Shown one piece after another: positions 17,572 through 61,865 of a stretch of 64,000 nt of DNA. This DNA is from Eutreptiella sp. 'Long Island Sound 2002' (Eukaryota > Protista > Euglenida): assembly GCA_964036045.1 (NCBI GenBank), contig OZ038378.1, positions 96,348,001 to 96,412,000 on the forward strand, written 5' to 3'. Position 1 is the first letter of the stretch. Every line of letters begins with the position of its first letter. Under the pieces are notes generated by a model. That model was not told where the DNA came from, did no database searches, and saw nothing but the letters and a program-made list of their open reading frames with translations. Position numbers and translations under genes: made by a program.

Positions 17572-19043
17572 TTAGCGCTGGCTACCTTGTCTTTGAGCTC
17601 GTCAAACGCTTGTTGCTCTTGTGGGCCCCAGCGCCAAGTAGTACTCTTCTTGATCAAGTCCGTCAGAACGGCGCTGGTGTAGGTGAAGTTTTTGATGTGG
17701 CGGCGATAGAAGATGCACGCCCCAATGAAACTGCGTACATTATGAAGTCCTTTCTTGGGGTCTTCGTGTCGTACCTTGGCATCCATCAGGGGTTTGGCCT
17801 TAGAGGCCGCTGGGGTCCACCACCCATAGCAAACATCGAACCCCAGGTACTGCATGGTCTCCTGCATGAACTCACACTTCTCCTGCTTGAGTCGTCTGTG
17901 GTTCTCCTGGCAGACTGCAAAGAACTCACCGAAGAGGATTAGGTGATCCTCCTGGGTATTGGTCCCGAGGCATACATCGTCGATGTGAGCCTCCATCTGG
18001 GCACCACGGGATATGAGCTCCTGCACCTTAGGTCTCCTTCGTAGGATGGACAAGATCTTGTTCATCAGGTCTTGGAATAGAGCGGGTGCGTTGGCCACAC
18101 CAAACGGCATGACCTTCCACTTGAATACCCTCCCCTGAGGGGTGATGAAGGCCAGTAGTTCCTGTGCGTTGGGCGTCAGGTCCACTTGCCAGAATCCGCT
18201 CCTCTTGTCCATTTTGGTCTTGTAGCGACAGGAGGCTATCTTCTCCAGGGTAGAGTCCATATTGGGAATGGACCCTGAGTGGTTCAGCCTTTTCTTGTTC
18301 AGCTCTCTGTAGTCCACTACCAGCCGTTTGGCTGTAGACCCAGGTTTAGCCACCAGGAAACAGGGGCTGCAGTGTAGGGGGTACTCCTCGTCCTTGTACT
18401 CCAGGACTAGGCCAGCGTCGATACATTCTTGTTTCTGTCGCTCAATCTCGTCGGCCTGCTCTTTAGGAGCTGGATAGGGTCTCCTCCGGATCTTGTGACC
18501 CACGAACTCGGGTTTCAGCTTGAGGTCCATCTGTACCAGCTTGTCACATGAGGCTGGAGGGGGTAGTTCTCCGAACACCCCTAGATAGGTTCTTATAAGC
18601 TTCTGTACCCACGGGTCCAATACCTTGATCTTGTCCTCCATGTCCTCGTCAGAGTGTAAGTTGCTTGCCCCCTGAGTAATAGACGTCGGGAGGTGGTCCT
18701 CCACCGACTCTTCGCCCGTGGCAGTGTCCTTCAGCCCTTGGTAGGCATATAGAAGGTCTTGTTCAACCATCTCCGGTGGACGATGGCAACATAGGCACGC
18801 TCGAGGGGGTTCACATACACATTCCTCCGAGAGGTCGTCCTCCTCTGGGGTCCTCACATGGGCGCCCCACACGCTCTTCATAAGCTTGAGATCTACCTCC
18901 CTTTGCGAGGTGGTGATCTTCTGTTCGAGGTCCTCCTTCAATTGGGATAGGTCTCCCATACGTCCTTGCTTCAGTGGCCATGAGCTGCGGGTAGGCTTCG
19001 CGTAGCATAGCTCTTTCGGCACCAACTTTATCTTGGAATCCAA
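17529..19043 (-). pseudogene. pol: Reverse transcriptase domain of pol
   Basis: IRRRPY, SPCFLVAKPG, RLVVDYRELN, DKRSGFWQV, FKWKVMPFGVANAPALFQ, AHIDD. Preceded by two in-frame TGA (19044-46, 19062-64) and followed by a 1 nt frameshift near 17560. Confidence 0.95.
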
Positions 19044-19449
19044 TCACTCCCTTAGCCTGGATCAAGGGTCCAGCTCCTCGTCCACGAGGTCTTCCACCCT
19101 CATGGAGAGTAGGGGTTTCAGTGGGGCGACGTACTCGGCATTCTCCACCTCCTCCACACAGGTCTGCACGAAGAAGGCGTCGTGCTCAGTTTTGTCATCT
19201 GAGTGGATAGAGCTAGGTAGCTCAAATAGTCCACACTCAGAGACTCCATCAGGAACAGGTACATGACAGGGAGAGTTGGGGGTGTTGGTGTCAGTCACGA
19301 CGTACTCATCTCCTTCGGGTGTAGTCTCAACAGCATCTTGAGGTCGTAGGCGATCCTTCAAGTCACCCAAGGCGAGTCCGTCGGTTTCTCGTTGTATAGC
19401 CTGGAACAGAGTCGGGTCCAGATCCTCCGAGGAGATGGAGGTAAGACCT

Positions 19450-19870
19450 CCGTCCACCACGCTCAGCATACTCCCCCATCCGGTTTTCCCAATAGGCGTC
19501 TTACGACCCAGAGGCACGTAGATGGCCTCATCAGGTAACCGAACAGAGCTGATAGTCAGCCTGTCCAGGAGGTTTTGCCAGTATTTGTTGCCCCCATGGG
19601 CTCCCCAATCGGGGGAACACAGGACCATACGGGAACGTTCCAAGGCCACTTTGGTCAGCACCTTCCCCAGCTCACTGAACCTGGGGTTCCCGTAGGCCAT
19701 CCCGAAAGAGGGCCAGTAAAATTTTCTAGCTGCAGTTCTTCCCCTTGCTGCAGTAAAGGTCCAGTGCATGCTGCTTGTCGCTGGCGAACACCTCCACACT
19801 CAGGTCTTCTCGAGAGTAACCCAACTCCTTCAGACCTTGGTCTAGGACTTCCTTGAATAGTTGATAGTCC
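19450..19870 (-). pseudogene. Dam-like (DIRS-type MT) N6-adenine methyltransferase domain within pol
   Basis: Joined reading VEVFASDKQHALDLYCSKGKNCS/KFYWPSFGMAYGNPRFSELGKVLTKVALERSRMVLCSPDWGAHGGNKYWQNLL follows the DIRS MT/phage Dam pattern DLFAS..N..L..YCS...F.W...Y.NPPFS....VL.K....ILVAP.W...W..L. Broken by a TAG and a +1 shift at 19721-19728. Confidence 0.8.
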
Positions 19871-20325
19871 TCAGTTTTGGAGGCCGCCATCATGTTCCAG
19901 GGCTCCTCCTTCGATAGCCTCAGGTAACTCGAGGTATGTTCTGACTGCTCCAGTGGCACAGACTCTTTGCACTGCCGTGGTCCACGTAGAGGAGGTAGGG
20001 GTTGTATCTGCGAGTGCTGTACGAAGAAGTCAGTCCCCAGTACAAAGTCGAAGGCCTCAGTGTCCATCACATAGAACCGATGGGCGATAGTCCGGGAGCC
20101 CATAGGTACCTCCACTTCACAGTTCCCGCAGCTGTGCACCACATGTCCATCCCCCATGCGTATAGCAGCGGTGGTCATGGTGTTCTTCAGGCTCCCACAA
20201 GGTAACATTTTCTTGGCCACTATAGATATGGTGGCGCCAGTGTCCAATACCCCCAGGTATTCGCGTCCCCCTAGTCGGATACGTACCCAAAACACCAGGT
20301 CTTGGGTGCCACCGGAGCGTCCCCG
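19870..20325 (-). pseudogene. pol: Retropepsin-type aspartic protease domain of pol
   Basis: LGVLDTGATISIV active site and FDFVLGTDF; in frame with gag after a single TGA. Confidence 0.9.
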
Positions 20326-22830
20326 TCAGAACTCCGCGGGACAGGTCACCTCGAACCCCTTGTTCCGCAATTTGCGGGCCATCCTCATGAAACGGCTCCT
20401 CTTCTTAGCGTTGCCGTCATCACCACCTTCATGCTCACGCTTGGCTCCTTGTTGTTGCTGGGCCTGCGTTTGTGACTGTGTGGTAGGACCAGACTGCCCT
20501 CCAGAGGGCTCGGAGTTCCCCCCTGGATTAGGGTTGGGGTTGCCTCCGTTCTTGTCCTTGTTCTTGTTGTCGGGCTGGCGGTTAGCGCCTCCTCCTCGTC
20601 CACCTTGACCCTTGTCTTGCCCTTGACTACGTCCTTTCGACTTGCCCTTGCCGGAGTCGTTGCCTTTGCCTTTGCCTCCACCTTTGCCGGAGCCTTTGCC
20701 AGGATCTTCACCCTTAAGCCTCGCCGATAGGCGTTGCTTATGGTAGCACTCATCCTCGTAGTGCTTCCGCTTCCCGCAGAATGCACACGGGATGGTGCAC
20801 CTGTAATGATCCGGCAGCTTCGCTTTGGCGCCGGTGTTCTTCTCCTGCTGCTTCCCCTGGACTACGAAGCAGTCTCGCTGCTCGCAGTCAGGGGCGTGCT
20901 GCAGGTGGCCTTGCTCGTCTCTGGCATCACACCAGAATAGCTCCTTCACGTTCTCCATGATACGGGCGTGGGCGTGTTTGGGGGTAGTCCCCTGCCCAGG
21001 TCGGGACCCTTGGTACCCTTTGCCATGACCTCCAGAACCTCCTCCTCCAGGACGGTAATTGTTCAAGTGCTGGTCGCTCTCCTTCTCCAGAGCCAGCTCA
21101 AGGAGTAGCACGCATAGATCCTCGTAGCAGAGGGATCTAGCCTTGCGCTCCGCCGTCGAACGGCACTCGTCCCATAGCTCTCGAGGGAGCTTGGCCACCA
21201 ACCAGAACAGCAGGTCGTCGCTGCTGTAGGAACTGGGCGTCAGTCGTCCAGCCCAGTGATCCAGGTCAGCCAACAGCTCAGAGACCCTGCCAGGTTTGGG
21301 GTTGTTGGGCAGCACGGGCAGGTTCTGGATCTCAGCCCTGATGGAGAGGTCAGTTTCGTAGGTCGGGTACTGCCTCTCCAGGGCAACCAACACATCGGCA
21401 AAGGTGGCGGAGTTAGTCACGATCTGCCTGACCTGCTTGTCCAGGTACTTGGTCTTGCAGCACTGCAGGAGCAGATCGCACTTGACTCGCCCACTAGCGT
21501 TGGTTTGGCCGGTCAATCGGAAAAACCGGCCAAAATTCTCAGCGAACTCGCTGAGGTCCTTGCCTGTGAACTCAGGCAGGTTCACCACGATCTTGGAGGT
21601 GGCAATAGCCTTCGCCTCCTGAGACCTGCGTCCCTCAGGGCATCGGGTTTTCTTCTTCTTCTTCTTCTTCTTCTTCCCCCTTGGGTCCTCGGGGTCCTCC
21701 GGGTCATCGTCATCCGAGGGCGAGGCAGAAGTCATCGACGGCGGCTCATCATCGGAGGGGTCTTCGCCTAGATCACTAGAGCCATAGAGCTCGACGTCCA
21801 CCATTGCCCTCAAGGCTGTCAGCCCCAGCCGGTCCAGCTCATCCCTCGTAGAGTTCGTCACGTGGCTGTAGGGCGGCTTGGCCGTTCTCGGTACGAAAGG
21901 ACTTCTCGGTATAGCTGCAGGAGTCGGCATCGGTCGGCTCCTCAGGCTCCCCAGGGTGTTTGTCAACCCTGCCGCCAGGTGGTTGGCCTGTACTCGGTGG
22001 GGTGACATTCCCACCGTGGTAGGTGACGCTTGGGGCGGTATCATCAGGGGCTCCGGTTTCTCTCGGATCTCTTGAGTGAGGTCGCCCACGATTTTTGTAG
22101 TGGCTCCTCGGAGCACCTCGTTGATCTCCGACCGCGTCAGGGACCTGTTGGAGGATCTCCCCGATCCTCCACTCCTGCCTCCCAGAGACTCAGGTCCTCT
22201 CCTCAACCCACTCAACGTTGCATACCCAGGTGCATACCCAGGAACATCCACATAGGTTCGAGTAGCGGGTAGTGGATGGGGATATTCAGCCGCATACCAT
22301 CGCGGCGCAGAGCTGGAAGCCACCAGCTCACTGGCAGTAGTTGCCTCAGGGAGCGCAGTGGTAGGTGGACCCATACCATAGGCGGGGTAGGGAGGCATGC
22401 CAGTAAAGCCTGTGCCCTCTGCCATAGGCGGGTTGGTTATGGGAGTGGATGTTGCAGTGGCTGAATCTCGAATTGGGAGTGTGGTGGTTATAGGAGAGGG
22501 TGATGCGTGGAGGCCAGAAGTGCTTGGTGCGCCTTCGAAGGTAGGGTCATTCGTCAGGTCTTGCCCTTGTTCCTCTCCTTCGTCTGCTTCGTCTCCAGCA
22601 TCCTTCTCGCTCTCTCCCTTCCTCTTCACAGGCTGAGTGACCACCTCCTCGACTGAGAGGGCTCTGAAGGCTGTCTGGAGTCCATCCAACGAGTCCTCAG
22701 CCACTTTCACTGGCCAATGTAAGGGCTCCGAAGGTACAGCGCGAGGTCCAGGTCCAGGTTCACCAGGTACTGGCCTTGCCGGTGCCTCAGGCGCTGTCTT
22801 CACGTCGGCGTCCTCTTTCCTTGGATCCAT
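20326..22830 (-). CDS. gag: Gag-like polyprotein (834 aa) with CCHC zinc knuckle
   Basis: Uninterrupted ORF after the PBS; CAFCGKRKHYEDEC fits C-x2-C-x4-H-x4-C; capsid-like LPEFTGKDLSEFAENFGRF segment. Confidence 0.85.
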   Translation of the reverse strand: MDPRKEDADVKTAPEAPARPVPGEPGPGPRAVPSEPLHWPVKVAEDSLDGLQTAFRALSVEEVVTQPVKRKGESEKDAGDEADEGEEQGQDLTNDPTFEGAPSTSGLHASPSPITTTLPIRDSATATSTPITNPPMAEGTGFTGMPPYPAYGMGPPTTALPEATTASELVASSSAPRWYAAEYPHPLPATRTYVDVPGYAPGYATLSGLRRGPESLGGRSGGSGRSSNRSLTRSEINEVLRGATTKIVGDLTQEIREKPEPLMIPPQASPTTVGMSPHRVQANHLAAGLTNTLGSLRSRPMPTPAAIPRSPFVPRTAKPPYSHVTNSTRDELDRLGLTALRAMVDVELYGSSDLGEDPSDDEPPSMTSASPSDDDDPEDPEDPRGKKKKKKKKKTRCPEGRRSQEAKAIATSKIVVNLPEFTGKDLSEFAENFGRFFRLTGQTNASGRVKCDLLLQCCKTKYLDKQVRQIVTNSATFADVLVALERQYPTYETDLSIRAEIQNLPVLPNNPKPGRVSELLADLDHWAGRLTPSSYSSDDLLFWLVAKLPRELWDECRSTAERKARSLCYEDLCVLLLELALEKESDQHLNNYRPGGGGSGGHGKGYQGSRPGQGTTPKHAHARIMENVKELFWCDARDEQGHLQHAPDCEQRDCFVVQGKQQEKNTGAKAKLPDHYRCTIPCAFCGKRKHYEDECYHKQRLSARLKGEDPGKGSGKGGGKGKGNDSGKGKSKGRSQGQDKGQGGRGGGANRQPDNKNKDKNGGNPNPNPGGNSEPSGGQSGPTTQSQTQAQQQQGAKREHEGGDDGNAKKRSRFMRMARKLRNKGFEVTCPAEF

Positions 22831-22916
22831 CTTCGTTCGCCCTTCTGCTTATTGGTGACTGCTCGGCGCACTGGATGTACGGCGCGGGGTTGCTGCCGGT
22901 GCGCAGAGACAGTCTG

Positions 22917-22928
22917 CCTCTGCTACCA
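22917..22928 (-). promoter_or_regulatory. Primer-binding site complementary to the initiator tRNA-Met 3' end
   Basis: Minus strand reads TGGTAGCAGAGG, the complement of CCUCUGCUACCA at the eukaryotic tRNA-iMet 3' end, immediately 3' of the 5' repeat and ~90 nt upstream of the gag ATG. Confidence 0.85.
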
Positions 22929-23655
22929 GAAAAGTTTATAGTGGTTTCAACACTGTGTTTTTGTCTCTCCTGCTGCTTGCTGCTGGTGTAGGGTTTTTTG
23001 CTGCTTGTTTTTGGAGATGAAAACCTTTTGTTTGCTGAAATACAGTAAATCCAGGTTAGCCCAAGCCAGAGGTGTGCAAGGAGAAAAGAATCAGGGTCAA
23101 AGCATGAAGGGCTGCAGTGTAAACAGTGAAAGATGAAAGGATATTCACAGAAACTGCAACTCAGGTCAAATCGGATTGCATATTCACAAAGATAGCTGAA
23201 ATGTTTTGGAAAAGAGTTGGAAAACTGCCCCATGGTCACTCTATCTCCATAGTGCCATTTCAGGAGATGTGCACTCCTTGTTTTGGGTCCCATAAGTGCT
23301 GAGATGGCAGGGCATGTGGCGATGAGGTCACTGCCATGTCACATGGGATCTTCCTACTTAGCTAGGCTGACGAGGATAAGAATTCATGGAAAAACATAGA
23401 TAAATTCATAGGCTCTGCCCTGGATATGTCAGTACTCAGTAAACTCAGGAAAAGGTGATTTGCCTCACATTGAAAGGGAATTTAGGGGTCCACTCCATAT
23501 CCTGATTGGGTGTTTGGTTCCATAGGTCAAAATGTGTTATCAGCACTTTTGGTGGGGCCAATAGTAAGATAGAAATGCCTGGATGCCCAGTGCATCCCTA
23601 ATACAACTAGAGTATGCCTCAAAGCATTGGAAAAGCACTTTTTCTTACTCCCCTG
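22929..23655 (-). repeat. 5' LTR-like direct repeat
   Basis: Copy of 12477-13269; directly abuts the PBS. Confidence 0.65.
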
Positions 23656-26600
23656 GATGTCACACTATACAGGTTTGTACTTCTGAGGTCCAGTGTGAAC
23701 CAATATTGAAGTACTGATCGTTCCCTAGGGAGAAATGAGAAGCCATACCAAAGCAACCGCAGATTGTTTTACCATACCCAAACCCGCCTGTCTCCATGTA
23801 CATGCGACTATACCTATGGTCCAGCCCCGACCGGTACCTACGTACAGATTGACTATGCAAAGAATTGTGGTGGTCTTGTGAGGGGAATGAGCATGTGACT
23901 GCCATGACTGACACTGTGACTGAGATCTTCGAGGCGCCAGGCTGATTGCCCAGTTTCTCTGAAGTGAACTCCCAGCAATCCGCCACTGTCAGTCCCAGTG
24001 TGAGCCCACTGAGTTGCCTCGGCAGTTTGTTGGCGGGCTGCAGTGTCCTGACTTCGGTCAATCTACCCCGGAAACTGATTGTTTGAGGAGTCAGCGCCTC
24101 CGTCCGAACAGCCTCCGGACTCCTCCATCCATGGTCCTCGTGGTAATAGGCCGAGGGAGATGACAGTCTTGATGGCCGTTGCCTGATTGAGAAGCTCGTG
24201 CGGCTGTACCACTCTGGACTCGCCTCGTGAATATGGACATGGACACCCCTGGGAATGGTCGGCCCATATCTCTGGCTCAGAGGCCGGTCAGGACGAGCCA
24301 TCCAAGGAGCATAGGGAAGGACTGAGAGTTGACCCTGGAAGGCATTGATTCCTGTGAACTCGCCCAAAGGTGATCAGAACGCCCCTCCCCTGGCAGGGTT
24401 CCAGCGTCATTTCCGGACAGATCTGTGGTAATTGTTCCAGCCCCCTTAATCGATGCCACCAGGGAGTTGGAAGCTGGGATTGGGAAATTCTTTGTGACTG
24501 AGTGTCTATTGCCTTGAGGCGCTTTACCCGAGTCAGTGCCCTATCCCGCCTGTCCAGTACATATCCTGATGTGTTGTTGTACATACTTTTGCTTTTTCAG
24601 ATAGTAGGAAGGATCGTAGAACGCTTTGTTCTATGACGACGCCTTTGGGGGCAGTGCTTTCCCTGCCTGCCTGCTTGTGTGTGTGTCCAAGCAACAAGGC
24701 CCCCCATGGTAACGTATCAGTATTAAAGCGTTGGCCGATTACTGACAGTTTCCTGATTCCATGGGACGTTCACATGTGCCCCATGCTTCCTGTAAGAGGA
24801 GAAATGACTCCATTTCTCGCATGTTGTTGAAGACTGGTCTCTAAGCTGACCAAGGGTGTCTTGTTCCCTTCATCCAACTGTGGATATAGAGCTGCAGCCA
24901 TATTCACTTGTTGTCCCCGTGTCCTTCTCAGGAGTGTGGCTCTTATGACCTTTGCCTCTTTTACCCTTGTGCTATTCGGCTTTGAATGAATTCGGTCTGA
25001 AGTTACCTTAATGGCCTGAGTTGACCTGTACATCAAAGAGTCTAAGTTGCAATACACCGAGGATCAGTATACGATTGAGTCTGGATTTCATGCCTTCATC
25101 TTCCCTAAGGGAACGGTGCAAAGGAACTGCAACAGTTCACCTGATAGCAGCCCGTTTTGCCCCCTCTCCACAAGAGCCTAGATAGGTTTTGGAGTGGATA
25201 ATCAAAACCTTGTGAGACTCACGTCAAAGAAAGCGGAAGAAGGTTGTTGGTACACGCTAGTGCAACGGATTTTGTTATAACACTCAAACGGTGTATTCTG
25301 CTTTCGTGCCCGCCCAGTCGCTGCCTTCTCGCTTAACCTGGACGAACTGTTGAATGTCAAGGACAATGCATTTTCTTTCTATTGGAGCCCGGTGCTTAAA
25401 CATCACCAGAAGCAACACCCCGGCTATATGGGATCGTTCGTAGACTACTTGATTGGATTTCAGAGTCTGCAAAGGATTTGAAATTGCCTCTGTTTTGCTT
25501 TGCTTTGCTCATTCGCACTGTCCTTTACCCTGTTTTCTGAGCCTTTGAGGTCACTCAACACCATTTTGAGGCAACCACAGCTTTTTATGTGGCGAGTGCT
25601 TCAGAAAATTCCATTTCTATTTTATCAACACGACATTCTCCTTTGAGCGCAGTTGTGCTATTTTTGATAGCGAATTTCTATTTGGAGAACGTCAGCCTGT
25701 GGCCCCTAATTTGCGACTACGCAAAATCCAAGACCATGCAACAAGTTTGCCTGTCGCAATTCTGAAGTCGGTTGTCCCTCCACATTCCCTCAAGTTAAAG
25801 CTCCCAGTTTTATGGCTTCTGGTAAAAAAGGTAGCAAATTTCTGTGGCCTGCAATGCTGACACGTTGTAAGGTTGGACGAATCCGTGGACACGCGCAGCA
25901 ACACAATGGCAGCGGCCTTTGCTGTCTGCTCTTCCTCCTGTGCTCCTCCAGGCCAAGTTGGCTGCACAGAAAAAGGTTTTGGTTTGAATCCCTCTCGATT
26001 CGAAAAATAGTTTTTTGTGTTTCATTTCATCACGATTGGGTACGTTGTTTTTTGGGTCGCAGAGAAACCAGTGATAGTGCTTCGGGTCAACAAAACGATA
26101 GGATTGATATTTTTGTCCTTTTAGGTGTTATCTTGTTTGCACCTTATAACTAGGTTGGGCATGGTACATGCTCCCAAGGATTAACAAGCAGCGAGCATAC
26201 TGCTTCACGGATTCCTGGACCCGGGATATGATCTAGAGAGGGGGGTCACACATATCCCATGCACTCTCTGTTGGATGGCTTTGTGTCTCACGGGGTCCAA
26301 TGTCATCTCGGAAACGGGTTCCTCGTTTTATGCCGTGTGCCACTCGGAAGCCAATCAGCGGACAAGTTTTGTTCCTGTTGCTTTAATGCAATTTTGGGCA
26401 TAAAATTTAAGGTACTTCAGTATGGAACCGCCTGTGAGTCAACAAGATACGTATTTATCCTGGACGGCTCAAGTTGCAAGGTCAAAATCTGCCAAAACGT
26501 GCCTGTATGCACAACTCAGGAAAAATAGTTTTTTTTGGGGACCCTAAAACAAAGAGACATGAAAACAAGCGAAAAATTGATTACTTCGACCGTTTTGATT

Positions 26601-27771
26601 TATTTTTTAGAAACGGGACTGCCCCTGAAAATAATTTATCTACCTAAAATTGCACTGGTTTTGTTTGGAAAACCATGGCTTTTCCTTTCATTTACCACTT
26701 ATGCTTTCATATGAAAATACCCATTAGGTAGCAATCCCTTCGAAAACCAGTTTTTGAAATCCGAGCTGCACACAGCACAACAAGAAGCATTTTTTAAAAC
26801 ACTTGGTTGCGCGAGGCCTCGCGCAAACATAAGCACAACAGCACAATAAAATGCATCACAGGGAGAAATGTGCCGCACAAAGTGACATCAAAAAGGTCGT
26901 CGAAGGGGAGTGCATAGCGCGAGCCCACGCACATAATATATCAGAACAAGCGAAGAAATTACCTTTTGTTCGGAGCAGCTTGCAGCTTAACACCCATAGA
27001 CTTAGGAACGGACGTCTTACCCTTTGGCGGTGGCTTTGCCGGCTGGACTCTTGGTTGGGACTGACGAGCTGGCTGCTTGACTGAAAGTATAACCCGGCTC
27101 TCCTCAGACCCTGGTCTCACTGCCGCTTTCCTCGCTGTCTTGCCTTGGTAGACCTGCGGTTCTCCTCCTCTTCTTCTTCGCTCTCCTCCCCCTCATCCCC
27201 ATCGCTCTCGTCAGTATCTTCACCGGTACCCGATTTTGCTGCCTGAGGCTTGGAAGCAGTCTTCTTCCTCTTGGGGGCAGGTTCCTCATCAGTTGACTTC
27301 CGCTTGGCTGCCGCGGCCTGTGCTTCTGCAGCTTGACCCTACTGAACAATCTCTTCCTCCTTCAGCTCGCACGCATAGGAACGCAACTTTTGATCCCGAA
27401 CCCAAAGGAGCAATACCACGGTTTGTCCAGTTGGCCTGCTGGTCCGAATCACCAGACTCGTCCAGCTTCCACCCCTGTGTCAAGACGTGGTTCAGCTGAT
27501 TCTGCACTCTGTTGACTTAATCAGAGAGACTCTTGGTGGACACACCAAGAAGGTACATGCAAGAACCCGGCTCCATGGCAGCAATCTTTGACATCAGGTC
27601 TAGTTGATGATCGATGAACGCAAAAGCAGACCTGAATCCCTTAGTCTCCTTCAGGTGATGGAGGTGAGTATCGAAATACCACATAAAATGCCTTATCGGC
27701 AGGGGGCCGCCAAAATCGGTGTCTACAGTCTCCCGTACTTGAGTAGGTCCAAACCATAGATAATTTGGAAT

Positions 27772-27838
27772 CTGCAAAGAGAGAGAAGTTATTGCGCGAG
27801 GCCTTGCGCAAGTAGTGGACGTAACGATGATTTTATAC
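27772..27838 (-). other. 67 nt GT-AG intron containing the 20 bp palindrome (27792-27811)
   Basis: AAA|GTATAA...TTGCGCAAGGCCTCGCGCAA...TTCTCTCTCTTTGCAG|ATT; removal fuses two ORF-track fragments in frame (WSRK-IPNY). Confidence 0.8.
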
Positions 27839-28959
27839 TTTTCTGCTCCAGCTGTCCGGTAACAAAACCAGCAACCAGCGAACGTCGAACAACGTAGGAT
27901 CCCTAGCTGCCTTGGGATTGGTTGGCCAACTGAAGATGGGAATATGCAACATGTTACCAATGCGCGACGCTTTGAGGTCATGGTTGAGGCGCCTCTCCGT
28001 CTCCGTGTCCAGAACGTCGTACATGTTGTCAACAGCAGTTTGAGATCCGCTGATAAGTGTATCAGCAAGCGCCATTTCTTCTTACAGCGAGGCCGGGCAC
28101 ATCGTCTCAGGATCAAGATGTTCAAATATATCACCGTTGCTGACAATCAGGTTCTTGTCAATCTCCAAGAACAGCCTCCGGGATTCGTGCACCAGAGCTG
28201 CAATTCGGGTCGCCTTAGTTGTGATAGTTTGACTTGCCAGCAATGGATCCTGCTTTTCCACTGTCTTGAAGTCACCAGTAAGGCCAGCAGCTGCGGGGAC
28301 CACACGGCGCTTGGTAACCTCTGTTCCCATGAGTCTTTGGACATTTAGGATTTTCGCAGGAACGGGTTTGCCCTTCTCTGCCACCTGCCATAGTGGTGCG
28401 CGCAACATGGATTTCCGCGCCCGCCATGAATCGCTACTTTTGCCTTCAGGTTCCCGCCAATAGGCCTATGTGCCAAGAGTCACCTTCAGGGTTTGCTTTC
28501 GAAGTGCAGCAACCTCTTTGCCGCTGTGCATGTCCTTGGCTACAGAACAGAAAAGGAGAAGGTGTTGTAGAAACACAACCTAGGCCTTATTGACGATATA
28601 TGGCTTTCTTAGGTCGGACGTACTGGCCTGTTCCAGGGTGGTCCAGATGCATTGAGACCCACAATTCAAGGATGATGGCGTTGAACGATTTCTGCAACGA
28701 CTTGAGTTTTTTTTCTTCTTCCTGCATCTTGGCTGCCACTTTCTTGTAGACCACCGGCAAGATGACACCCTCCAGTTTCTTTAGTGCGTTCTTCGACACT
28801 TTCTCCCTTTTGTCATGGAACGTTTGCAGACCTTCCACAGCATCCGGACCAACATAATAGGCAAACGTCATGATATCTTTCCACAATTTATACGTATTAT
28901 ACTGAAAATGCCAAGGTGATGCGCGAGGCCTCGCGCAACGAGCAGAGTCGAAGGAAAAC

Positions 28960-30350
28960 GTTAGGTAGGTAGGTAGGTATCTTCGAGAGCTCGGGATGCC
29001 TCCTTTGACATTGCAGGAAGAAGATCTTACCAAAGGGACATCCTGTCCCTCCCACTGCCCTATGTCAGGTGCCTCTTGAGCCGCTCCCGCATGTGCTTGG
29101 GAAGGCATTGTCGCGGCCACCCGGTCCATGTGTCCCACGTGGGAGGGTGTCCCCACATGTGTCCATGGGTAGGGCCACTTGCCCCCTCCTTTGGGCGGCA
29201 GCTCTGGGGGCTGCCGAGCCGTGTGGAGTATCTCTCACCACAAGGGGTATTGCTCCCGCTAGTCTACGGTACGACCGCCTCACCGTTGTGGCTTGAGTTG
29301 CGGGGCCACTCTGCTTGGCAGGCGACCCCCTCCTGGACTGTGTACCGCCTCGCCTGTCACCGGTTGCTTTTTTTGCACTGAACGGCGCCTTTTGTGGCTG
29401 GCCAGGCCGTTAGCAACCGGTGACAGGCCTGTCACCGGTTGCTTCCATGGCTCCAGGTGATGTTTGCCATGGTCCCCTATGCAGCCTGGCCGGGCTCGGA
29501 CCAGTGGCCTTGGAGTACCGCTCCTGCCACTGGCCCGGTGGGTCGGCTGGGTTGCCCCAGTTCGTCCGACCCATGGGGTGTTGGTTCTTTCCTGTCCCTC
29601 GGCCGCCCTACGTGTGTGCAGTGTCCATGGCCGCTTGGCTCCTGTTCACTGGTGTGCCCGCGTTGTTTGTTGTGTTGCGCCAGCGGTGTCCTGGGCCACT
29701 TGGCTCCCGTTCACTGGTGTGCCTGCTCGGTGTGGTGTGTTGCGTTCGCGGTGTCCCGGGCCACTTGGCTCCTGTTCACCGGTGCGCCCGCTCGGTGTGT
29801 TGCTTTGCGTGTGCGGTGTCCTGGGCCACTTGGCTCCTGTTCACCGGTGTGCCCGCTCGGTGTGTTGTGTTGCGTCTGCGGTGTCCTGGGCCACTTGGCT
29901 CCTGTTCACCGGTGTGCCCGATCGGTGTGTTGTCTTGCGTGTGCGGTGTCCTGGGCCACTTGGCTCCTGTTCACCGGTGTGCTCGCTCGGTGTGTTGTGT
30001 TGCGTGTGCGGTGTCCTGGACCACTTGGCTCCTGTTCTCCGGTGCGCCCGCTGGGTGTGTTGTAGTGTGTGCAGAGTCCTGGGCCACTTGGCTCCTGTTC
30101 ACCGGTGCGCCTGCTCGGTGTGTTGCTTTGCGTGTGCGGTGTCCTGGGCCACTTGGCTTCCTGTTCACTGGTGTGCCCGCTCCGTGGGTTGTGTTGTGCA
30201 TGCGGTGTCCTGGGCCACCTGGCTCCTGTTCACCGGTGTGCCCGCTCAGTGCGTTGTGTTGTGTGTGCGGTGTCCTGGGTCACTTGGCTCCTGTTCACCT
30301 GTGCGCCCGCTCGGTGTGTTGCTTCGCGTGTGCGGCGTCCTGGGCCCCTT
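28960..30350 (-). mobile_element. 1.39 kb non-LTR-type insertion (SINE-like or truncated LINE) with (ACCT)n tail
   Basis: Flanked by GGAAAAC at 28953-59 and 30351-57 (10/11 match if extended to GGAAAAC[G/T]TTA). (TAGG)4 at the left end, minisatellite at the right end. Removing it restores a 73 nt intron. Confidence 0.7.
29623..30347. repeat. 65 bp minisatellite, ~11 copies
   Basis: Unit gtcctgggccacttggctcctgttcaccggtgtgcccgctcggtgtgttgtgttgcgtgtgcggt starts at 29623, 29688, 29753, 29818, 29883, 29948, 30013, 30076, 30141, 30207, 30272 and 30337. Confidence 0.95.
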
Positions 30351-30736
30351 GGAAAACTTTAAATGAACATACAAATTAACCCGATTGCTTCAGTTCAGCA
30401 GTCGGAACAAGAGCACTCATCTGCACAGCATCCACAATAGCGATCTTCAGATTGCTGTACGTGTCAGGTAGGTTCTGCCGCCGCTGATCTTCAACACACC
30501 GAAGGAGGCTATCTGCCGCCTGTTACATTAAAATCGGCTCAACGTCCTGTGCGCTTCCTTGCGCTTGTCCCACCAGTTTTGTACAGAAGGCCCACGGTGA
30601 AATCAGGCTTCAAAATATCGGCCGTGCATGTGGTATGCCACTTGTACAAATCCAGACATGCTGCCCGTGGCTTCTCCCCAATCTTGAAAACTGCCCCCAA
30701 TGCTGTGCTGTTCAGATACACACCAATAACCACCAT

Positions 30737-30807
30737 CTGCAAATAGAAGACAGGTCCATGCGCGAGGGCTCGCGCAGCGAGAAAAACGAACAGTCCGTTG
30801 GAAACAC
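30737..30807 (-). other. 71 nt GT-AG intron containing the palindrome (30758-30777)
   Basis: AGT|GTGTTT...CTGCGCGAGCCCTCGCGCAT...TCTTCTATTTGCAG|ATG; in-frame join WEDNS-MVVIG. Confidence 0.75.
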
Positions 30808-31236
30808 ACTGTTGTCTTCCCAGAGAACGACTGGTATGGGGCCTGTTGGTCGTGCTGCTTCAAGTGACTCGATTCGGTTTTGCAGTAAATTTGCATCTTT
30901 GCGTCTGATCAGTCCTCTTGTCTTCTCTTGGTCGATGCTCACAATGTCCAGCTCAATCTCCACCTGCTTCCCATCCGGCTGCAGGTGGTCCTCGATGTCT
31001 GTACCCATTGTCAGGCCAGATATGGTGTTTCCTACTTCTTCCGCCCCTTCTTTAGCGTTCCAGTCTCCGATTCCAATTCTTCAGGGTCATGGTCGGTATC
31101 CACCAGTTCTTCACCTGTCTTTTTGGCGGGGCCTGCCATTCTGGGATAAGAACAGAGCCTGTTTCGCAAGAAACGAAGAACCGATGTGTGACCCATTTTT
31201 AGCGAAAACGGCTAAGGTATTGCTCAGAATGAAAGA

Positions 31237-31307
31237 CTGAGAGGTACCACAACGGTTTTTGTTAACAACCTTGCGCGAGACCTCGCGCAAGAGGGGGGTG
31301 TAATAAC
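31237..31307 (-). other. 71 nt GT-AG intron containing the palindrome (31271-31290)
   Basis: CAG|GTTATT...TTGCGCGAGGTCTCGCGCAA...CCTCTCAG|TCT; in-frame join GVKQQ-SFILS. Confidence 0.75.
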
Positions 31308-31483
31308 CTGTTGTTTCACGCCATTTGCGCGAGGCCTCTTGCGCCACTGCATGGTCTCCAATCTTCTTCGAACGTTCCGGATCGTGTCACCTTCTCTCTG
31401 CTCCTCCAACACACTGCGTTGGAGAATCAGCTCCGACAATTTTCTCTTAAAACCAGCATTAAGCGGCCCCTGCTGAATCAGCA

Positions 31484-31524
31484 CTAACGACATAGAAACA
31501 AGCACTTGTTTATAATGGTTACAC
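31484..31524 (-). other. 41 nt GT-AG intron without palindrome
   Basis: G|GTGTAA...CTATGTCGTTAG|TG; a phase-1 join leads into VLIQQGPLNAGFKRKL. Confidence 0.45.
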
Positions 31525-33420
31525 CCCTTTGAAATTAGAAGAGACGGTGGAAAGCTGGGTACACCCCTGCGTGGCTATTGTGCCTGGGTTGCACAAGTAG
31601 GCTCCGCGCACCACCAAACCCGAGGCACATACACGCGCTCTGCGTTGAAGTAAACGGTTAACCGCTGACACCCGGAATTGCCACAGGAATTAGGGATTTT
31701 GCAGACCTTCACCCTGTGACCTTCTTTCCGGATAATGATTGGATGGTACACATCTTCAACATCGTCAATGGTCACAGCAGCTCTGTTTTGTGTTTTTTTC
31801 GTTACAGGGCTGGAGAGCAGACTTTCACAACACTCCTCAACATAACCCTGTCCAGGCATAGCTGAGTGCCATGCAGTGTGGAATAATAGGGCAGTTGCAA
31901 CAGTGCGTTCGTAGTTTAAAAGTGTGCCCCCCATGTTCAAACGGTCCAAAGGACACATGACGATCTGCAATCCCCCAGAAGCAAAAACACCCGTGTTAGC
32001 AGTCTCACCGCCCCAATCGCACTGCCTTACGAGGTGTCCCAGGTATAGTAACATAGGACAGTATTGTGTTAACAGAACCTGCATGGCTTTACACACAGTG
32101 TATTGAAGACAACTTCGCCGATTGGCTGGACGTGCCAACCCAAGGGAGTGACATTTCCTGTTGAGGCGCCGTATTAGGGGGCCCATACCCAACAGCAGTG
32201 CACCAACGGTTATCTCCATTGTGATCAGCTTGGGAAAACAAGGGACAGTGTCACCGCTGCGCAACAAACCTTTACGGAAAAAGTCAACAATCAGCCAAAA
32301 TGAGCGAAATGTTTGTGTATCGCAAAATTTGTATGCGTGCCAGAAACCATATAATATACGCTGTGACCGCAAAAAAAGCCAGACAATCCAGCCCGTTTTA
32401 TTTTCACCATACATCATCTTACAAATGTCGTAATGGATGTTCCCGTCACATAAACAGGCACAACTGGAGGAGTGTGTTGCGCCACGTCCCTAGTGATTTG
32501 CAGTAGGTTAAGAAGCGATATGTTGCTGCTTACCTTTTCTTGGCTTAGACAGACGGGCCGCCAATGCCATCTCTTGGCAGGCACTGGGCATATAATGTCA
32601 AGCGGTGCCCAGATGTTTCGCACAACAGGCTGCGTGCTTGCAAATCCCAGATCACGCAGGATACATGCAAAAGTTCCCTCCCTGTTCCCCAGCATGCGCG
32701 CAACAACAGGGACACGCCGTTCAGACTCTTCCAGGATAGGATGACCATGCCAGTAGGGTGGTGCATCCCGTAGTAGCAAGACAGCCAACGCTGTTGCGTT
32801 AAAGCTCTTGTCGTTCTTGTCACGGTTTTTGGTAAATTGTTTGTTGTACCAGTTGTCCATCAACAACACAACCCACCGCTGGTGTATTTTGTTCCATGTA
32901 CTCTGTAACCTGACTGCGGCCCCTTCCTTCACTGAAGGTGCGCTGTATCACGCCAGACCGGACCTTGCTGTAATGCGCCGCTGCGCCCTACTTCCCTCTA
33001 TCGCAATAACACATTTTGGTTTTCCCTGGTACGGAACTGCGCAGTGGCGCATCTGTAAATAAAGGCGCCAGGCCTCTTCCATCAAAACAGCAACCCACCT
33101 CATGCCCTCAGCCACGATTGCCTTTTCAACACTGCAACGCGTCCGTTCAATTTGGCGCAGACGCAGAAAAAACACAAACATCAATTACCTGCCCTCGTCC
33201 CCCTGTTTTAGTCCTTCCTACAATTCTTCTGCCGTGTGATACGGCGGTTCCTCTGAGCAGACATCGCGGAATACTCCAGATGCTGCGGCCACTGTCTTCT
33301 CAAGGTCCGACACTCTTCGCAGGGGCATTGTTACTGTGAAATAGATTGCGTGAATGTATCTTCCTAAAAATTGCTGTTCCAAAAAGTTTCCTGCTTGAAA
33401 CATCAACATGTCACACAGTT
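31500..33420 (-). pseudogene. Putative DDE-type transposase core, frameshifted
   Basis: RWVVLLMDNWY (32846-60); VYV(D)GNIHYDICKMMYG after repairing a 1 nt shift near 32440; LYGFWHAYKF; LLFHTAWHSAMPGQGYVEECCESLLS. The D..D..GxWH..HxxxH..E layout and its position between TIRs suggest an RNase-H-fold transposase; superfamily uncertain. Confidence 0.6.
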
Positions 33421-33973
33421 TTCGCGCGACGAAATGTTCAATGATTTGTTGGTCGCATGCACCATTTTCCTTTTACTGTAACTGCCTGGTGGTCCCAGAT
33501 TTAACTGGTTAGGCCTAACTGTGGTACCCAGCTGCGGCGCGCTACCATCGCTGTTGGGCAGTGAAGTTGGCGGTGACGACAGTATGAAAACTAGAGATGC
33601 CGGCAGGACCCGCACTGGCGCCCAAGCGGCAGCGCCAAATCAAAGGAAAAATACATGCTGTGTAGTTGGTGGATCTGTCCATTATCTGTTTCTATGCGTG
33701 CTCATAACTTCCGAGGCCTCGCGCAAACATCAGTAAAAACTGAATGTTTGTCATGCACCATTCCGTGCGCGAGGCCCCGCGCATGAAACTACAGTTTGTT
33801 TCGGGAGATTTATACATTTCAAGATTCACAGGTGTAGCGATGTCGAGATTTATTCATTAAGACATCCATTTTTATCACTCGATCGTGATAATGTTACAAA
33901 GTTACGTGTATAAATACGATGGGTTTCTCTCTTCCGACGACCTGCCAAATGCGTTTCGCTGTAGTACATGAAT

Positions 33974-34033
33974 CTGACACAAATGAACGGCTTTGAGCAA
34001 GGCCTCGCGCAAGGAATGGACACAAAACAATAC
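33974..34033 (-). other. 60 nt GT-AG intron containing the palindrome (33993-34012)
   Basis: AAG|GTATTG...TTGCGCGAGGCCTTGCTCAA...TTTGTGTCAG|ATT; phase-1 join gives MTRNMGDIWKDSCTTAKRIW. Confidence 0.65.
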
Positions 34034-36169
34034 CTTTCCATATATCACCCATGTTCCGTGTCATTTCTACAACAATATCTATTTCATTGCACTGATTTGC
34101 GACGGTCCAGACATGTCCATCAAAATAATTATTATTTGATGCTCTCGGAAACCTGTCGTTTTGCTACCTTTTTTGTTGTTTTTGACCCTGCAACTTGAGC
34201 CGCCTAAGTTCATGGTCTCAAGCAGTTCTGTGGAGGCCTGTCTTTGCGTGTGTGCTCGTCTGGTGCTCATGTTGCGTGTGCGTGCTCTCTGTTGTTCGTC
34301 CACTCCATTAATACACGCCGAGCAACTGTAATATCTTCTGAACGGGTGTTAATAGTGTTTTAACTCTATAGTGTTGCCAAAAAGGACGCGAATCGGAAGC
34401 AAGGGCGACCCCCAGTTGATGATAGAGGGCCCGGAATGGAGATCTGCTCAAACCCTGGTGCGGTGCCTCCGCCAACACCAGCGAAGGCCGCAAGAAGGAA
34501 TGGTACACGTTCATTGGAGCATTTGTTTAAGTATTCGCCACGCCTACGTGTATGGGAGAGCACGAGTCCCTTGAAACTCGGGAAGTCAGTGTAGAGGAGG
34601 AGTTGAATTGCAGGTGGTTGAGGCAGGCGCAGCAGAGCGGAAGGAAGCACATTGTGCATTGCTCTGCAAGTGAGTTTTTCTTCTTCTGCTCTGGTTATTC
34701 ACTTTGCAAAGTCACTCCCTGGAGTGTTCCCCACCCAACAGATGTATCCTTTGTTGCAACGGGCATCATCTTCTTTGAGTACGCACGAGACTATGAATCA
34801 ACGAACTGTGGTCTTGTACAGTAGCTCAATTGCTGCTTTATTTTCCTTGCAGCAACCTTGGAAAGCATGCTTCGGTGCTACACAATTTTCTCATTGGATG
34901 ATGCAATACATTTAGTTGCACGGTAACACACATTCAATTTCCTCATTCAAGTAACGTTTGCAAGAGTAGTGCTACACAGCTTTTTCATGTTTACTTCAGC
35001 ATGTCATGTTTTGGGTTCATTGCTTATTTCGTTGCTAAGAATGATTGCGTCACGACCGCATACCTCCAGGGTATGCGTGCCTGCTGCCTCTAACGATATT
35101 GCGAAACATTGTTGCGAGAATTAGAACGGCTTAAGTAGGAGACAGGATCTGCCCGTGCAGCTGAGAAATTCTTTACCGGAATGCTTCATTTTGCCCTATT
35201 ATTTTGCGCAATTATTTGGGGACCCTTGTCGCAGCAGGGCTGTGGCGCCGCGCAGCCTGGCAGCTCCCCAAACAGACACGTAATCAGTTGTAAGGAGAGG
35301 CCCTACAGACCTAAAATGAAAGCATTTTTATGCGGGAACCAAATTGCTGAATTACAAATAATACCAACAGGTTTCATTAGTTTGCGTTGCAAACATTGTG
35401 CCGTGCAATCTCCCTCTGGAAACTCTTCTTCGCGTCCACTGTGCGTCCAGGGCAATGTTTTGCATCACGTGCAAGCTAGGACACGGTTTTGCCCCACCTG
35501 CAGGACCCAATGCGGGGACCAAACCACAGCCAGCGAGCGGCACGCCGAAGACAAGGGTGCAGCGTGTGCACTGTCCTAATATGTGCCTGCCCATAGTGCG
35601 AAGACACACGAGGTTGGGGCAGCTGAGAGCTGTCGACTTGAAGCCGCTGCCCAGAGACCAACCGGGGGGGCGGCTGAGAAACCAAGAAAGGGAGCAGGCA
35701 AGAGACCAAGAGATGGTGTTGATGTTCAGGGAGCTGCTAAAGGGAGCATGCACTCAGCTCCCTGTCAAGCCAGCAAGTACTAAGCACCCACTGACTGTTC
35801 CTACAGGGCAGCGCAGCGTCCTGGACTTTCCAGCGACAAAAAGGTATGTTACAACTACCCGCCAGTTGATTCCCATGAGGAAGTACCTATTGGAACCCGC
35901 TCAGAAAACCTACAACTGCGATCGCTACAGCTGGCCAGGTAACAATCATAGTTCTGCCTACTTGCAACATCTTTGAATGAATTTGGTACATGACCAAGAT
36001 GAGCAGAAAAACCCTGGTGTTACAGTGCTGCACCACAGTGTTTCTAATCGTCTTCCACAGCTAATCGTAAACGTAGTTCCGGTGATGCTTGATTTTGTTG
36101 AAGCATAAGTGACATGCTCTTCCGCAGTTTCAACAAGGAAAAAGTCCAAGGGTCAGTCAAAGAGGACGC

Positions 36170-59042: not shown

Positions 59043-60749
59043 CCTAGGCGGCTCAAGTTGCATGGTCAAAATCACACCAAATGCACCCAATTTGGAAAAT
59101 GCACAAAAATAGTTTTTCAAAGGCTCTGTTTTTTGAAAACAGAATATTAGTCCAAAGAAAGTATCTTTCTTACCATTTGTGCCATTTCGTGCCTTTTTTC
59201 GGACAGCCAAAAACAAAAAGAAACTATAAAAATAATAAATAAATCTTATGATTTCAGTGGAAAATGATGTGCTTTTAGCGAAAATTGGCCAAGAAATACA
59301 TTTTGCGTTTGCCTTGTTTTTTGGATGAACATGGTCTGCAGAAAAAATGATTGCAACATCATTTTCCGTCCTGCATGTTCATTGCATACCTGGAAAAATG
59401 ATTTGTTGATCGAATTCTATGCGCGAGGCCTCGCGCAATCAAGACCAAGGATCATTAAAACAGAAGCATGGCGGATTAAATATCAATGCAAAGCATATGC
59501 AACATGTGGTTCAAGGGCTGCCCCATGCACGAGGCCTCGCGCATAACTTACTAAACCAAAAACCTCACCCGATTGGCTTTCCTTTGGAAAGACGGCTTCA
59601 GGATCGAGTGGTCTTAGTACGCACCCCATGGTTTGATTTTGGATTTGCACTGCCTGAAAAAGAGGTATAGGTTGTGACTTTCAAGTTCTGGAACTGCATT
59701 GCAGTCCTCATTGCGCGAGGCCTTGCGCAAAAAAAGGCCCAGAAAATATATTCTTTGTACCATTGTGATGGGTTCCCATCTGATAGCGCTTGTGCACAAC
59801 CTTCACTGAAGCAACGAGTACCTAAATTGTCGTTGAGTCATTGAAATTTAGCACAAGCTTGCCCCCCCCGGAGGCGAAAAAACTCTTTTTCGGCTTGGTC
59901 AGCCCCTGCGCTTGACAGACTGCTTCCCCCAGGGCACCTTCTTTCTCCAGGTATCGAACATCATCTTGATAATTGGTGTCCTTTGCACTACATTAGATTT
60001 TACTCTCTAAAAAATTAGTTTTTTTGGCCCAAACAAACGCTCAAAAAAGCGCCACGCATGGCAAATTCATATTTTCTTTGCACATTTTAGTTTGATCTAT
60101 AGTCAACAACAGAAGGATCAATTTTCCTTCAGCCAAAGCTACAAGGGGGGTTTCTGTCCAGCTCAGCGTCATCTGTTGAGTGGGAATGCTTCATGTGTTA
60201 CCACTGATACTCTTTTTTTTGCTTGACACTCCCCATAAGTTGTGGCAGGTGTGCATCATGAGCAATGCTAAAGGATGCACCCTGTGCAACACCTCCAACG
60301 TATGTGCTCCTTTTGTTAGGAATGCAACAACATTTGAAATGCTTTTCTGAGTCATCAATTAGTTTTCCAAGGCTTGTTTAGAGCACTGAATGTCTGCCCG
60401 CGTAAACATATTGTACAATGTGATCAAGTCAAGGGTGCCTGTAATGTCACTCCAGTGTAGGTGCCTGCTTGATTCCTCACTTCTACCATCATTACCTGAC
60501 TTCGGAGGGGCAAGGGAGTGCTCCTTGCGCGAGGCCTCGCGCAAGGAACAGTCCATTGCCCCAAAGAAAGCATTTTCTGGACCCATCAGGACCAAGAAAA
60601 GGCCAAATTCCTTACATAAGAGTTCTTCTGGTGTTCCAAAAACGGCTTGATTTTTTGCAAGCCAAAGAATGGTTCTTTTGATGTTTTTTCAGGCTGTGTA
60701 TTTTGGGCACTTTCTGTCGTTTTATACCATGCAACTTGAGCCGCCTAAG
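59043..60749. mobile_element. 1707 bp non-autonomous TIR element of the same family as 26459-34208
   Basis: TIR C[C/T]TAGGCGGCTCAAGTTGCATGGT (23/24). Perfect TSD ACTGA at 59038-42 and 60750-54. Sister units show the empty site ggcactgaaacagac. Palindromes at 59419, 59525, 59711 and 60525. Confidence 0.95.
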
Positions 60750-61865
60750 ACTGAAACAGACAGGGGCTGACACCGCCCCCGTGCGACACTCTGTTTTGGA
60801 ATTGATATATCCTCCTGCGAGATCGTAGGGTTGGCATCGACGGGATAAGGATTGAGCGCTTTTGTGGGGACCGCTTTAACCACGACAGTGACAAACCCAT
60901 ACAACGCACATCCGGGGTGAGGGGGTTACAGTATATGACACGTGATGGCGAACTGCGACGCGTACCAGAATACGCCTACGTTCATATCAGTAGTTTGCCC
61001 GGTTTGGTTACGGGGTTGGTTCGTATGTGGGGGTATTACACAAAGAGGGGTGAGTATCACATCGTCGAGGACGAAGCCGAGTTCTTCGAATTGGTGGATA
61101 GAGTGAAGGATTGGCGTAGCATTGGGTGGATCAAAAGCGTGTGTGCCGCTGCTGCAAACGACAACAGCAGCAACAGCGCTGGTGGATGGTGACGAGCTTA
61201 CGTAATACTCAGTTTCAATTGGAGTGTTGAAAAAGAAGGCATATCTACCCGGGTGCTGTATTTATGACCCATGACGGGCCACATGACGCCAAAAAACAGT
61301 GAAAGTCCCAACCTGCCACACAGGCAATCACAGGCGCAAACAGCATCCCGTTGCCGCGCCACGAGAACGACAGAGAGGGTAATCGTAAGGTTCCCTACCA
61401 TGGGTGCTCAATAAACTCACCTCTATCCAACTGGATACCACGCATTCGAACCGCCTTTCTATTTTGCAACGCCCTTGTGTTGAACATCTGTTTCATGGCC
61501 CAGCCCGCGCGCACCATGAACCCGTTTACCGCACATTTGGCACAGTTCAATAACCACCCACGACAGACAAACATCAAATCACGTGTCATATTGGTTGGCT
61601 CGAACCGCGTTGTAACAATTGCTATCATGTTTAATGAAGCCCTGCTGATTGCGTAGAATGTCAATCCCACCACGTGCCACAACACAGAAATCCGTTTCAG
61701 CAAATGAATTGCAGTAATCAAACTCTGACCGTATCTAACATGTTACACTGGGTGCCAGCTAATCCCCAAAAGGCGCAACACTAATACTACTAAGACCTCA
61801 TCCATTGCTGCCATGTATTTGTCAATGGTCAGCCCGGGATGGACAATGTATGTTGCAAAACAGCA

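Follow-up and report, generated by a model that had tools for sequence, protein, structure and literature searches.

A 20-bp palindrome found outside coding sequence in two DNA transposons of Eutreptiella, a candidate operator

The transposon VANDAL21 of Arabidopsis encodes VANC21, a protein that binds YAGTATTAY, a motif located, according to the accessible part of PMC5735166, in introns, intergenic DNA and terminal non-coding regions; the accessible parts of PMC5735166 and PMC10398659 place the VANDAL21 motifs in tandem repeats. In Spm, TnpA binds clustered motifs of 8-10 bp at the element termini, and clusters of four or more are needed (bioRxiv 10.64898/2026.08.24.746577, as far as its available text goes). 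Here we analyze a stretch of 64,000 nucleotides from the euglenid Eutreptiella sp. 'Long Island Sound 2002' (assembly GCA_964036045.1, contig OZ038378.1, positions 96,348,001 to 96,412,000 of the forward strand; this whole stretch is called the window), which contains two elements bounded by terminal inverted repeats (TIRs): TE1, a decayed copy of a two-gene DNA transposon, and TE2, a shorter element with the same TIRs. Both carry copies of one 20-bp palindrome, TTGCGCGAGGCCTCGCGCAA. The reading towards which we lean, on the strength of sequence comparison, is that these copies serve as operators for a DNA-binding protein encoded by the element itself.

The palindrome was matched 11 times in the window at up to three mismatches, against 0 in 100 shuffles, and every coordinate listed in a first-pass annotation of this DNA does contain the motif. 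With up to six mismatches allowed there were 15 matches, ten of them in TE1 (26807-34012) and four in TE2 (59419-60544). The earlier claim that the motif is confined to the two TIR elements is thus borne out by 14 of the 15 matches, the lone outsider at 7123 (six mismatches) being probably a chance match; the earlier site list had overlooked one member, at 26915 (five mismatches). The palindrome is absent from ~54 kb of other repeats in the window, none of the gypsy element, the 6-kb array and the nested insertion having it, and no tandem array overlaps any of its sites. It is rich in CpG. Compared over its 14 sites, the motif hardly varies in the inner 18 bases and has T or A at the outer one (position 1/20), and the flanks are unlike one another. 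The sites, to which no strand is assigned, are as follows, gene A being the transposase gene of TE1 and gene B its second gene.

33993..34012, palindrome upstream of gene A, perfect in other copies (motif match and contigs of other copies)
33765..33784, palindrome upstream of gene A (motif match and contigs of other copies)
33707..33726, palindrome upstream of gene A, two bases missing relative to other copies (relaxed match, contigs, relative P0064)
31325..31344, palindrome sharing its outer base with the end of the transposase stop-codon position (relaxed match, relative P0047)
31271..31290, palindrome between gene A and gene B, within a 71-nt GT-AG stretch that joins no open reading frames (ORFs) (motif match, contigs)
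30758..30777, palindrome in gene B intron 1 (motif match and contigs of other copies)
28919..28938, palindrome in gene B intron 2 (motif match)
27792..27811, palindrome in gene B intron 4 (motif match and homologous ORFs)
26915..26934, degenerate palindrome 24 nt past the gene B stop (relaxed match; nearer to the motif in other copies, including P0327)
26807..26826, perfect palindrome downstream of gene B (motif match)
59419..59438, palindrome in TE2 (motif match)
59525..59544, palindrome in TE2 (motif match)
59711..59730, palindrome in TE2 (motif match)
60525..60544, perfect TE2 palindrome on which a longer imperfect inverted repeat is centred (motif match and inverted-repeat search)

No coding frame is interrupted by a palindrome at any of the 14 sites. 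In TE1, three sites lie upstream of gene A, two between the genes, three within introns of gene B and two beyond the end of that gene; those past stop codons follow gene A by 0 and 54 nt and gene B by 24 and 132 nt. The motif had been described as tolerated only in introns, with five copies in introns whose removal joins reading frames. Only three copies lie in such introns (30758, 28919 and 27792), all of them in gene B, while the other seven of the ten TE1 sites flank genes, in upstream, intergenic or downstream DNA, and TE2 has four sites and no gene. As read from the sequence, the placement rule is exclusion from coding sequence rather than confinement to introns. P0047, a relative in which the transposase stop is lost, reads MQ-S-CARPRT and then a second translation of the motif. 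As for the GT-AG stretches themselves, those of 71, 67, 71 and 60 nt do enclose the sites at 30758, 27792, 31271 and 33993, whereas the one of 73 nt (28919) exists only without the nested insertion. The stretches around 31271 (31237-31307, 71 nt) and 33993 (33974-34033, 60 nt, its palindrome ~670 bp upstream of the transposase start) join no ORF kept by relatives, because the transposase is an intronless ORF of 661 amino acids in these relatives; both may be introns of untranslated regions. Two observations on the sites stand apart. Paired sites are spaced by 54, 58, 106 and 108 bp, and a helical phasing was noticed among these values, which are too few to judge it. Around the TE2 site at 60525 the inverted repeat continues, imperfectly, to a length of 56 bp (60507-60562), which it does at none of the other 13 sites.

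Both groups of palindromes are enclosed by inverted copies of CTTAGGCGGCTCAAGTTGCA. Between them, TE1 and TE2 show TIRs, a target duplication established from an empty site (TE2) and an RNase-H-fold transposase with conserved D, D and E (TE1), as expected of TIR DNA transposons with a DDE transposase. Their features are listed below.

26459..34208, minus strand, TE1, two-gene DNA transposon of 7.75 kb, decayed copy (TIR matches at both ends; the flanks of other copies differ)
26454..26458, plus strand, left target duplication of TE1, 5 bp, TTTAT (sequence; register from the TE2 empty site)
26459..26497, plus strand, left TIR of TE1, decayed (inverted-repeat comparison)
34170..34208, minus strand, right TIR of TE1, starting CTTAGGCGGCTCAAGTTGCA (inverted-repeat comparison)
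31344..33328, minus strand, gene A, predicted intronless DDE transposase (homologues, structure model)
59043..60749, no strand assigned, TE2, 1707-bp element with the same TIRs as TE1, no gene found (empty site; six-frame reading)

The termini of the elements read CTTAG/CCTAG. On the right, the TE1 target duplication is TTCAT (34209-34213), the same as TTTAT at four of five bases, and past 34208 the contigs of other TE1 copies diverge into unrelated flanks. TE2 sits in one unit of the 6-kb tandem array and is bordered by two copies of the 5-bp duplication ACTGA (59038-59042 and 60750-60754), of which three sister units, showing the empty site, have a single copy. Six-frame reading of TE2 revealed no long ORF. 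A blastn comparison of TE1 with TE2 at word size 7 brought out the TIRs and the palindrome and nothing else, bar two chance words of 12-13 bases. Judged by its relatives, which form protein clusters of 146 and 277 members and whose contigs in four runs span all 30 bins, TE1 is a member of a large transposon family. Deletion derivatives are numerous in this family: P0009, P0103, P0064 and P0291 have internal deletions by which transposase sequence is joined to exon 5 of gene B, to its intron 4 or to the region upstream.

Gene B is predicted to consist of five exons on the minus strand (31139-26959), arranged as follows.

30808..31139, minus strand, predicted exon 1, with an inferred start codon (six-frame reading)
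30737..30807, minus strand, predicted intron 1, 71 nt, GT-AG, containing the 30758 palindrome (phase-0 frame join)
30373..30736, minus strand, predicted exon 2 (six-frame reading)
28902..30372, minus strand, predicted intron 2, 73 nt minus the nested insertion, containing the 28919 palindrome (contigs of other copies)
28964..30358, no strand assigned, nested high-copy insertion in intron 2, flanked by TTA/TA (contig joints, tandem-repeat search)
28580..28901, minus strand, predicted exon 3 (six-frame reading; covered by P0211)
28540..28579, minus strand, predicted intron 3, palindrome-free, 40 nt here (ORFs of relatives)
27839..28539, minus strand, predicted exon 4 (38 homologous ORFs)
27772..27838, minus strand, predicted intron 4, 67 nt, containing the 27792 palindrome (exon-4 ORF ends)
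26959..27771, minus strand, predicted exon 5, with an acidic/basic low-complexity tail (259 homologous ORFs)

These introns join open frames, and splicing is predicted from reading-frame logic across homologues. Intron 4 is the best supported by such comparison. Among the 38 exon-4 homologues (hand count), 22 stop one residue past the donor, 11 read through in the exon-4 frame, one reads through in the exon-5 frame and four end otherwise; the translated motif LREASR is kept at four or more of its six residues in eight of the 11 read-through ORFs and at three in the other three. From the opposite side, 16 of the 120 exon-5 homologues listed (259 in total, with one deletion fusion, P0291, omitted from the count) reach at least 13 codons into intron 4. 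All 16 have the motif translation CARPRA at four or more of six residues, and the acceptor codon, seven codons past it, is Q in 14, E in one and R in one. Introns 1 and 2 are supported mainly by this TE1 copy. Intron 1 makes a phase-0 join to a frame that is open in other copies after allowing for their 1-nt indel at 30600, and the 1.4-kb insertion in intron 2 is skipped by other copies (joints 28952>30362 and 28945>30362, one contig each). Among the 15 joints listed per contig set (991 and 36 more followed) from seven DNA-like runs there was no splice joint. One further run, presumed to be RNA (X11), gave no contig on 30370-34260, and the stretch occurred in no run recorded as RNA; these results have no bearing on expression.

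In introns 1, 2 and 4 the palindrome lies 27-36 nt past the donor and 17-21 nt short of the acceptor; when aligned, these introns have nothing in common but the motif and the splice ends, as had been noticed at first reading. The palindrome-free intron 3, previously given as 41 nt, measures 40 nt here and 50 nt in four relatives (P0194, P0197, P0199 and P0224, whose ORFs cross it in register; P0211 implies 48), yet its reported relation to the others, about 20 nt shorter, is retained: without their 20 nt the motif-bearing introns come to 51, 53 and 47. The gene B stop codon sits in a perfect donor context, AG/GTAATT, 28 nt before the 26915 site (26962-26766), much as in the other motif introns; no AG occurs within the next 70 nt, but a further intron and exon may lie beyond the stop. 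The nested insertion holds 11.4 copies of a 65-bp tandem unit and a TAGG-repeat end; its contigs are tens to a hundred times deeper than those of TE1, which marks it as a separate and very abundant repeat. A suspected likeness of gene B to N6/N4 DNA methyltransferases received no support from sequence searches of Pfam, PHROGs, NCBIfam and PDB.

Other copies of TE1 show what the palindromes may have looked like before decay. Among the best 40 of 1163 and the best 40 of 596 differences between TE1 and the contigs of other copies, several restore the motif: 33996 A>C and 33999 A>G (supported by no less than 98% of the depth in each of three runs), G>A at the 33765 site, two extra G at 33710-33711 (two runs), and 30777 G>A with 26927 A>T (four runs). 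The 31271 site is a perfect 20-mer in loose contig ends of two runs. Because other copies have more perfect palindromes at the same places, this TE1 copy has decayed, and the first-pass view that the variants represent decay holds, other copies mostly returning to the motif at deviating positions. The palindromes occur at the same homologous places across the TE1 family.

A fixed palindromic word with unrelated flanks, excluded from codons, found at the ends as well as in the interior and retained in a gene-less partner is how the operator of a dimer supplied in trans would look. Since the base at position 1/20 is free and the flanks are unlike, a binding site of fixed width is what one would expect. 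We propose that the palindrome would be the DNA operator of a two-fold symmetric protein encoded by the element, a dimer reading two TGCGCGAG half-sites, and the gene B product is the most likely candidate for this binder, ahead of the transposase. Bound along the whole element, the protein would keep it transcribed and mobile in an anti-silencing role like that of VANC or TnpA; alternatively, it might help in pairing the element ends. Because interior introns contain sites, anti-silencing or transcriptional activation is somewhat more likely than end pairing. The sites would be confined to places where they disturb no codon, which within gene B would be introns, lengthened by ~20 nt relative to the motif-free one; the intronless transposase gene would lack internal sites and be bracketed by them instead; and TE2 would retain its sites because it needs the same protein in trans. 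The first suggestion made for this locus, binding sites for a dimeric protein outside coding sequence, is hence still the best fit, once its restriction to introns is dropped.

A bolder form of this proposal is more tentative, and we regard it as possible rather than probable: an unclassified DDE lineage, with a 5-bp duplication and CTTAG ends, would have independently evolved VANC-like self-activation outside plants, and gene B would encode a new sequence-specific anti-silencing protein reading a 20-bp CpG-rich palindrome, its operator placed singly in the flanks and in minimal introns, leaving no stretch outside the transposase farther than ~1.1 kb from a site. If an element-encoded protein does read the sites, self-regulation through motifs spread over introns and flanks would not be peculiar to plants, and gene B would represent a new protein, DNA-binding or anti-silencing and programmable in appearance, whose 20-bp target is known.

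Several results weigh against binding by an element-encoded protein. Known anti-silencing motifs are 8-10 bp long and depend on clusters or tandem repeats (available text of PMC5735166 and bioRxiv 10.64898/2026.08.24.746577), and the single 20-mers in gene B, up to 1.1 kb apart, are unlike them. Searches of Pfam, PHROGs, NCBIfam and PDB sequences with the gene B product yielded nothing significant and revealed no DNA-binding domain; its structure model, at a predicted local distance difference test (pLDDT) score of 46, is unusable, and a fold search with it, in which no match reached a Z of 5, is uninformative. In the 11 decayed read-through copies, codons of the motif match the majority in 52 of 66 cases as against 57 of 77 in the 5' flank (hand count), so conservation of the motif does not measurably exceed that of its flank, and its homologous presence may reflect shared ancestry only. 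CpG transitions in neighbouring tandem units (45/1864, compared with 65/7397 at other C:G pairs and 102/10097 at A:T) do count for the proposal, in that the motif is CpG-rich and they show an excess that fits a host methylating its repeats, but this excess is modest, ~2.7-fold. The restriction of the palindrome to the TE1/TE2 family, finally, applies to the 64-kb window. In sequence collections, the 18-bp core of the palindrome was found at three viral and at least 120 metagenome loci, with a median GC content of 0.68. We take these for chance matches, because none of the 123 has a second copy, a TIR word or a tblastn match to the element proteins; neither TIR nor transposase was found in the viral contigs searched. 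Rfam gave no match anywhere in the window.

The same placement argument would hold if the sites recruited a host factor exploited by the element, such as a CG-box transcription factor, an insulator or a methylation-protective protein, with no element protein reading them. The CpG-rich palindrome and the failure to find a DNA-binding domain in gene B suit this explanation. A near-invariant site of 20 bp is, however, long for a single host factor, and the window's other repeats (gypsy element, 6-kb array and nested insertion) lack it; we consider a host factor unlikely.

An RNA hairpin aiding the splicing of short introns, or a marker of an intron class, would account for the regular position of the palindrome in three gene B introns (17-21 nt to the acceptor, 27-36 nt from the donor) and for two further copies in GT-AG stretches that are possible untranslated-region introns, and the expected stem does form in four of five motif-bearing stretches. 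The folding of these stretches of the decayed TE1 copy is nevertheless not better than that of shuffled sequence (z -0.46 to -1.72), gene B intron 3 has no palindrome, and seven of ten TE1 sites and all four TE2 sites lie outside frame-joining introns. With introns otherwise unlike one another as well, the splicing-hairpin or introner-like class put forward in the first-pass annotation is weak, and a role of this kind is improbable. We would rate just as low an action by structure alone, as a DNA cruciform or as an RNA stem terminating transcription or marking 3' ends. Two sites do follow the stop codon of each gene (gene A at 0 and 54 nt, gene B at 24 and 132 nt), but a structural signal would let the sequence drift with pairing kept, whereas the same sequence recurs at 14 sites among unrelated flanks, and intronic and upstream sites would shorten transcripts. 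Least probable of all is a minimal mobile or self-copying 20-mer without function, surviving where harmless, which was also among the first suggestions: the motif introns do resemble the motif-free one with 20 bp added (51, 53 and 47 against 50) and decayed copies show no conservation beyond the flanks, but direct repeats flanking the 14 sites are 0-3 nt at most, the same as at 2000 random positions, the places are fixed and homologous across the TE1 family, the ~54 kb of other repeats in the window are free of the motif, and no intron-4 copy without it was seen among read-through ORFs.

Gene A, interrupted in this copy by stops and one frameshift, is an intronless ORF of 661 amino acids in its relatives, which are 76-83% identical and end in C-terminal MQ. 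A wider search of a representative library retrieved 424 proteins at E 0.001, many ~30% identical, and Pfam matched no family below E 0.01 against 44 aligned members. The structure model (pLDDT 88.5) has the P element transposase as its best fold match (Z 10.3, root-mean-square deviation (rmsd) 4.8, 280 aligned), followed by Hermes (Z 8.3, rmsd 6.5, 283 aligned) and, further, by the Tn5, ISCth4 and Transib transposases; Foldseek returned the same top rows, none at E 0.001. Conserved residues include D158, D295, W330-H331 (a GxWH motif) and E498-E499. On this model, gene A is a DDE transposase with a helical insertion, and its lineage may be unclassified. The motif after the second D may resemble that of Academ. 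The 5-bp target duplication differs from those of Academ, 3-4 bp in AcademX and 9-10 bp in AcademH (PMC10045372, accessible part). The termini CTTAG/CCTAG likewise differ from CA..TG, given for the CMCT transposons (CACTA, Mirage, Chapaev, Transib) in the accessible part of PMC12730594, and this group was rejected. The same partial text describes hAT5 as a hAT group with a 5-bp target duplication, which TE1 and TE2 match, but no hAT family of Pfam was found in the 44 members, and the fold similarity of gene A to Hermes is shared with P and Transib. P, hAT, MuDR, Kolobok and Dada have DDE transposases with a helical insertion and a C/DxxH signature (PMC10045372, in part). With these, gene A has in common its fold similarity to P element and Hermes transposases, the conserved acidic residues and GxWH; it differs in lacking a Pfam match, in having GxWH in place of C/DxxH, and in its 5-bp duplication and unplaced second gene.

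Elsewhere in the window, a full-length gypsy-type long terminal repeat (LTR) retrotransposon with a chromodomain integrase and LTRs ~96% identical occupies 12476-23653 on the minus strand, and a tandem array of 5.5-6-kb units, ~95% identical, extends over 38428-64000. Two array units encode collagen-like triple-helix repeats (Pfam PF01391, E 4.6e-9 at 49105-50307), and the array also has a weak Peptidase_S74 match (E 0.04); these matches might point to a virus-derived origin. A second insertion of ~880 bp (61866-62744) lies in the last tandem unit and is absent from sister units. The parts of the window that were read contained no recognisable host gene with introns.

Introner copies are alike along their whole sequence. 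Like introners and hairpin intron classes, the introns of gene B are short and contain a common sequence word; unlike introners, they have only the 20-mer and the splice ends in common, and the 20-mer lies mostly outside introns. Alignment showed no similarity over whole introns, and introner-like elements were rejected. The Spm/CACTA TnpA system is closer, in that a second element protein (in TE1 the predicted reader) is paired with a family-specific motif, motifs there differing between families; its motif clusters are terminal, however, whereas TE1, ending in CTTAG..CTAAG, has sites throughout its interior (comparison with the available text). The half-site CCTCGCGCAA resembles the motif YCCTCGCAA of Arabidopsis TnpA(Spm1) as given in the same text, probably by coincidence. 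The closest likeness is to VANDAL/VANC, also a multi-gene DNA transposon with a family-specific motif in introns, intergenic and terminal non-coding DNA that avoids coding sequence; in the accessible parts of its literature the VANC motifs are 8-9 bp, sit in tandem repeats and are not described as palindromes, in contrast to the single 20-bp perfect palindromes of TE1. The pieces of gene B gave no significant family or structure match, the gene B model being too poor to speak for or against VANC homology, and TE1 is best described, by analogy, as resembling the VANC system in layout and not as a member of it. The initial statement that no described transposon has this design was too strong, since the motif layout of VANC21 in VANDAL21 is a precedent (PMC5735166, accessible part). 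The literature searched, with subscription journals, Repbase and supplements outside its scope, contained neither the 16-letter core of the palindrome nor a transposon with single long palindromes in introns. The layout is already known from VANDAL; what is new to the literature searched is the form, namely single 20-bp palindromes, minimal introns, an unplaced transposase and an orphan second gene.

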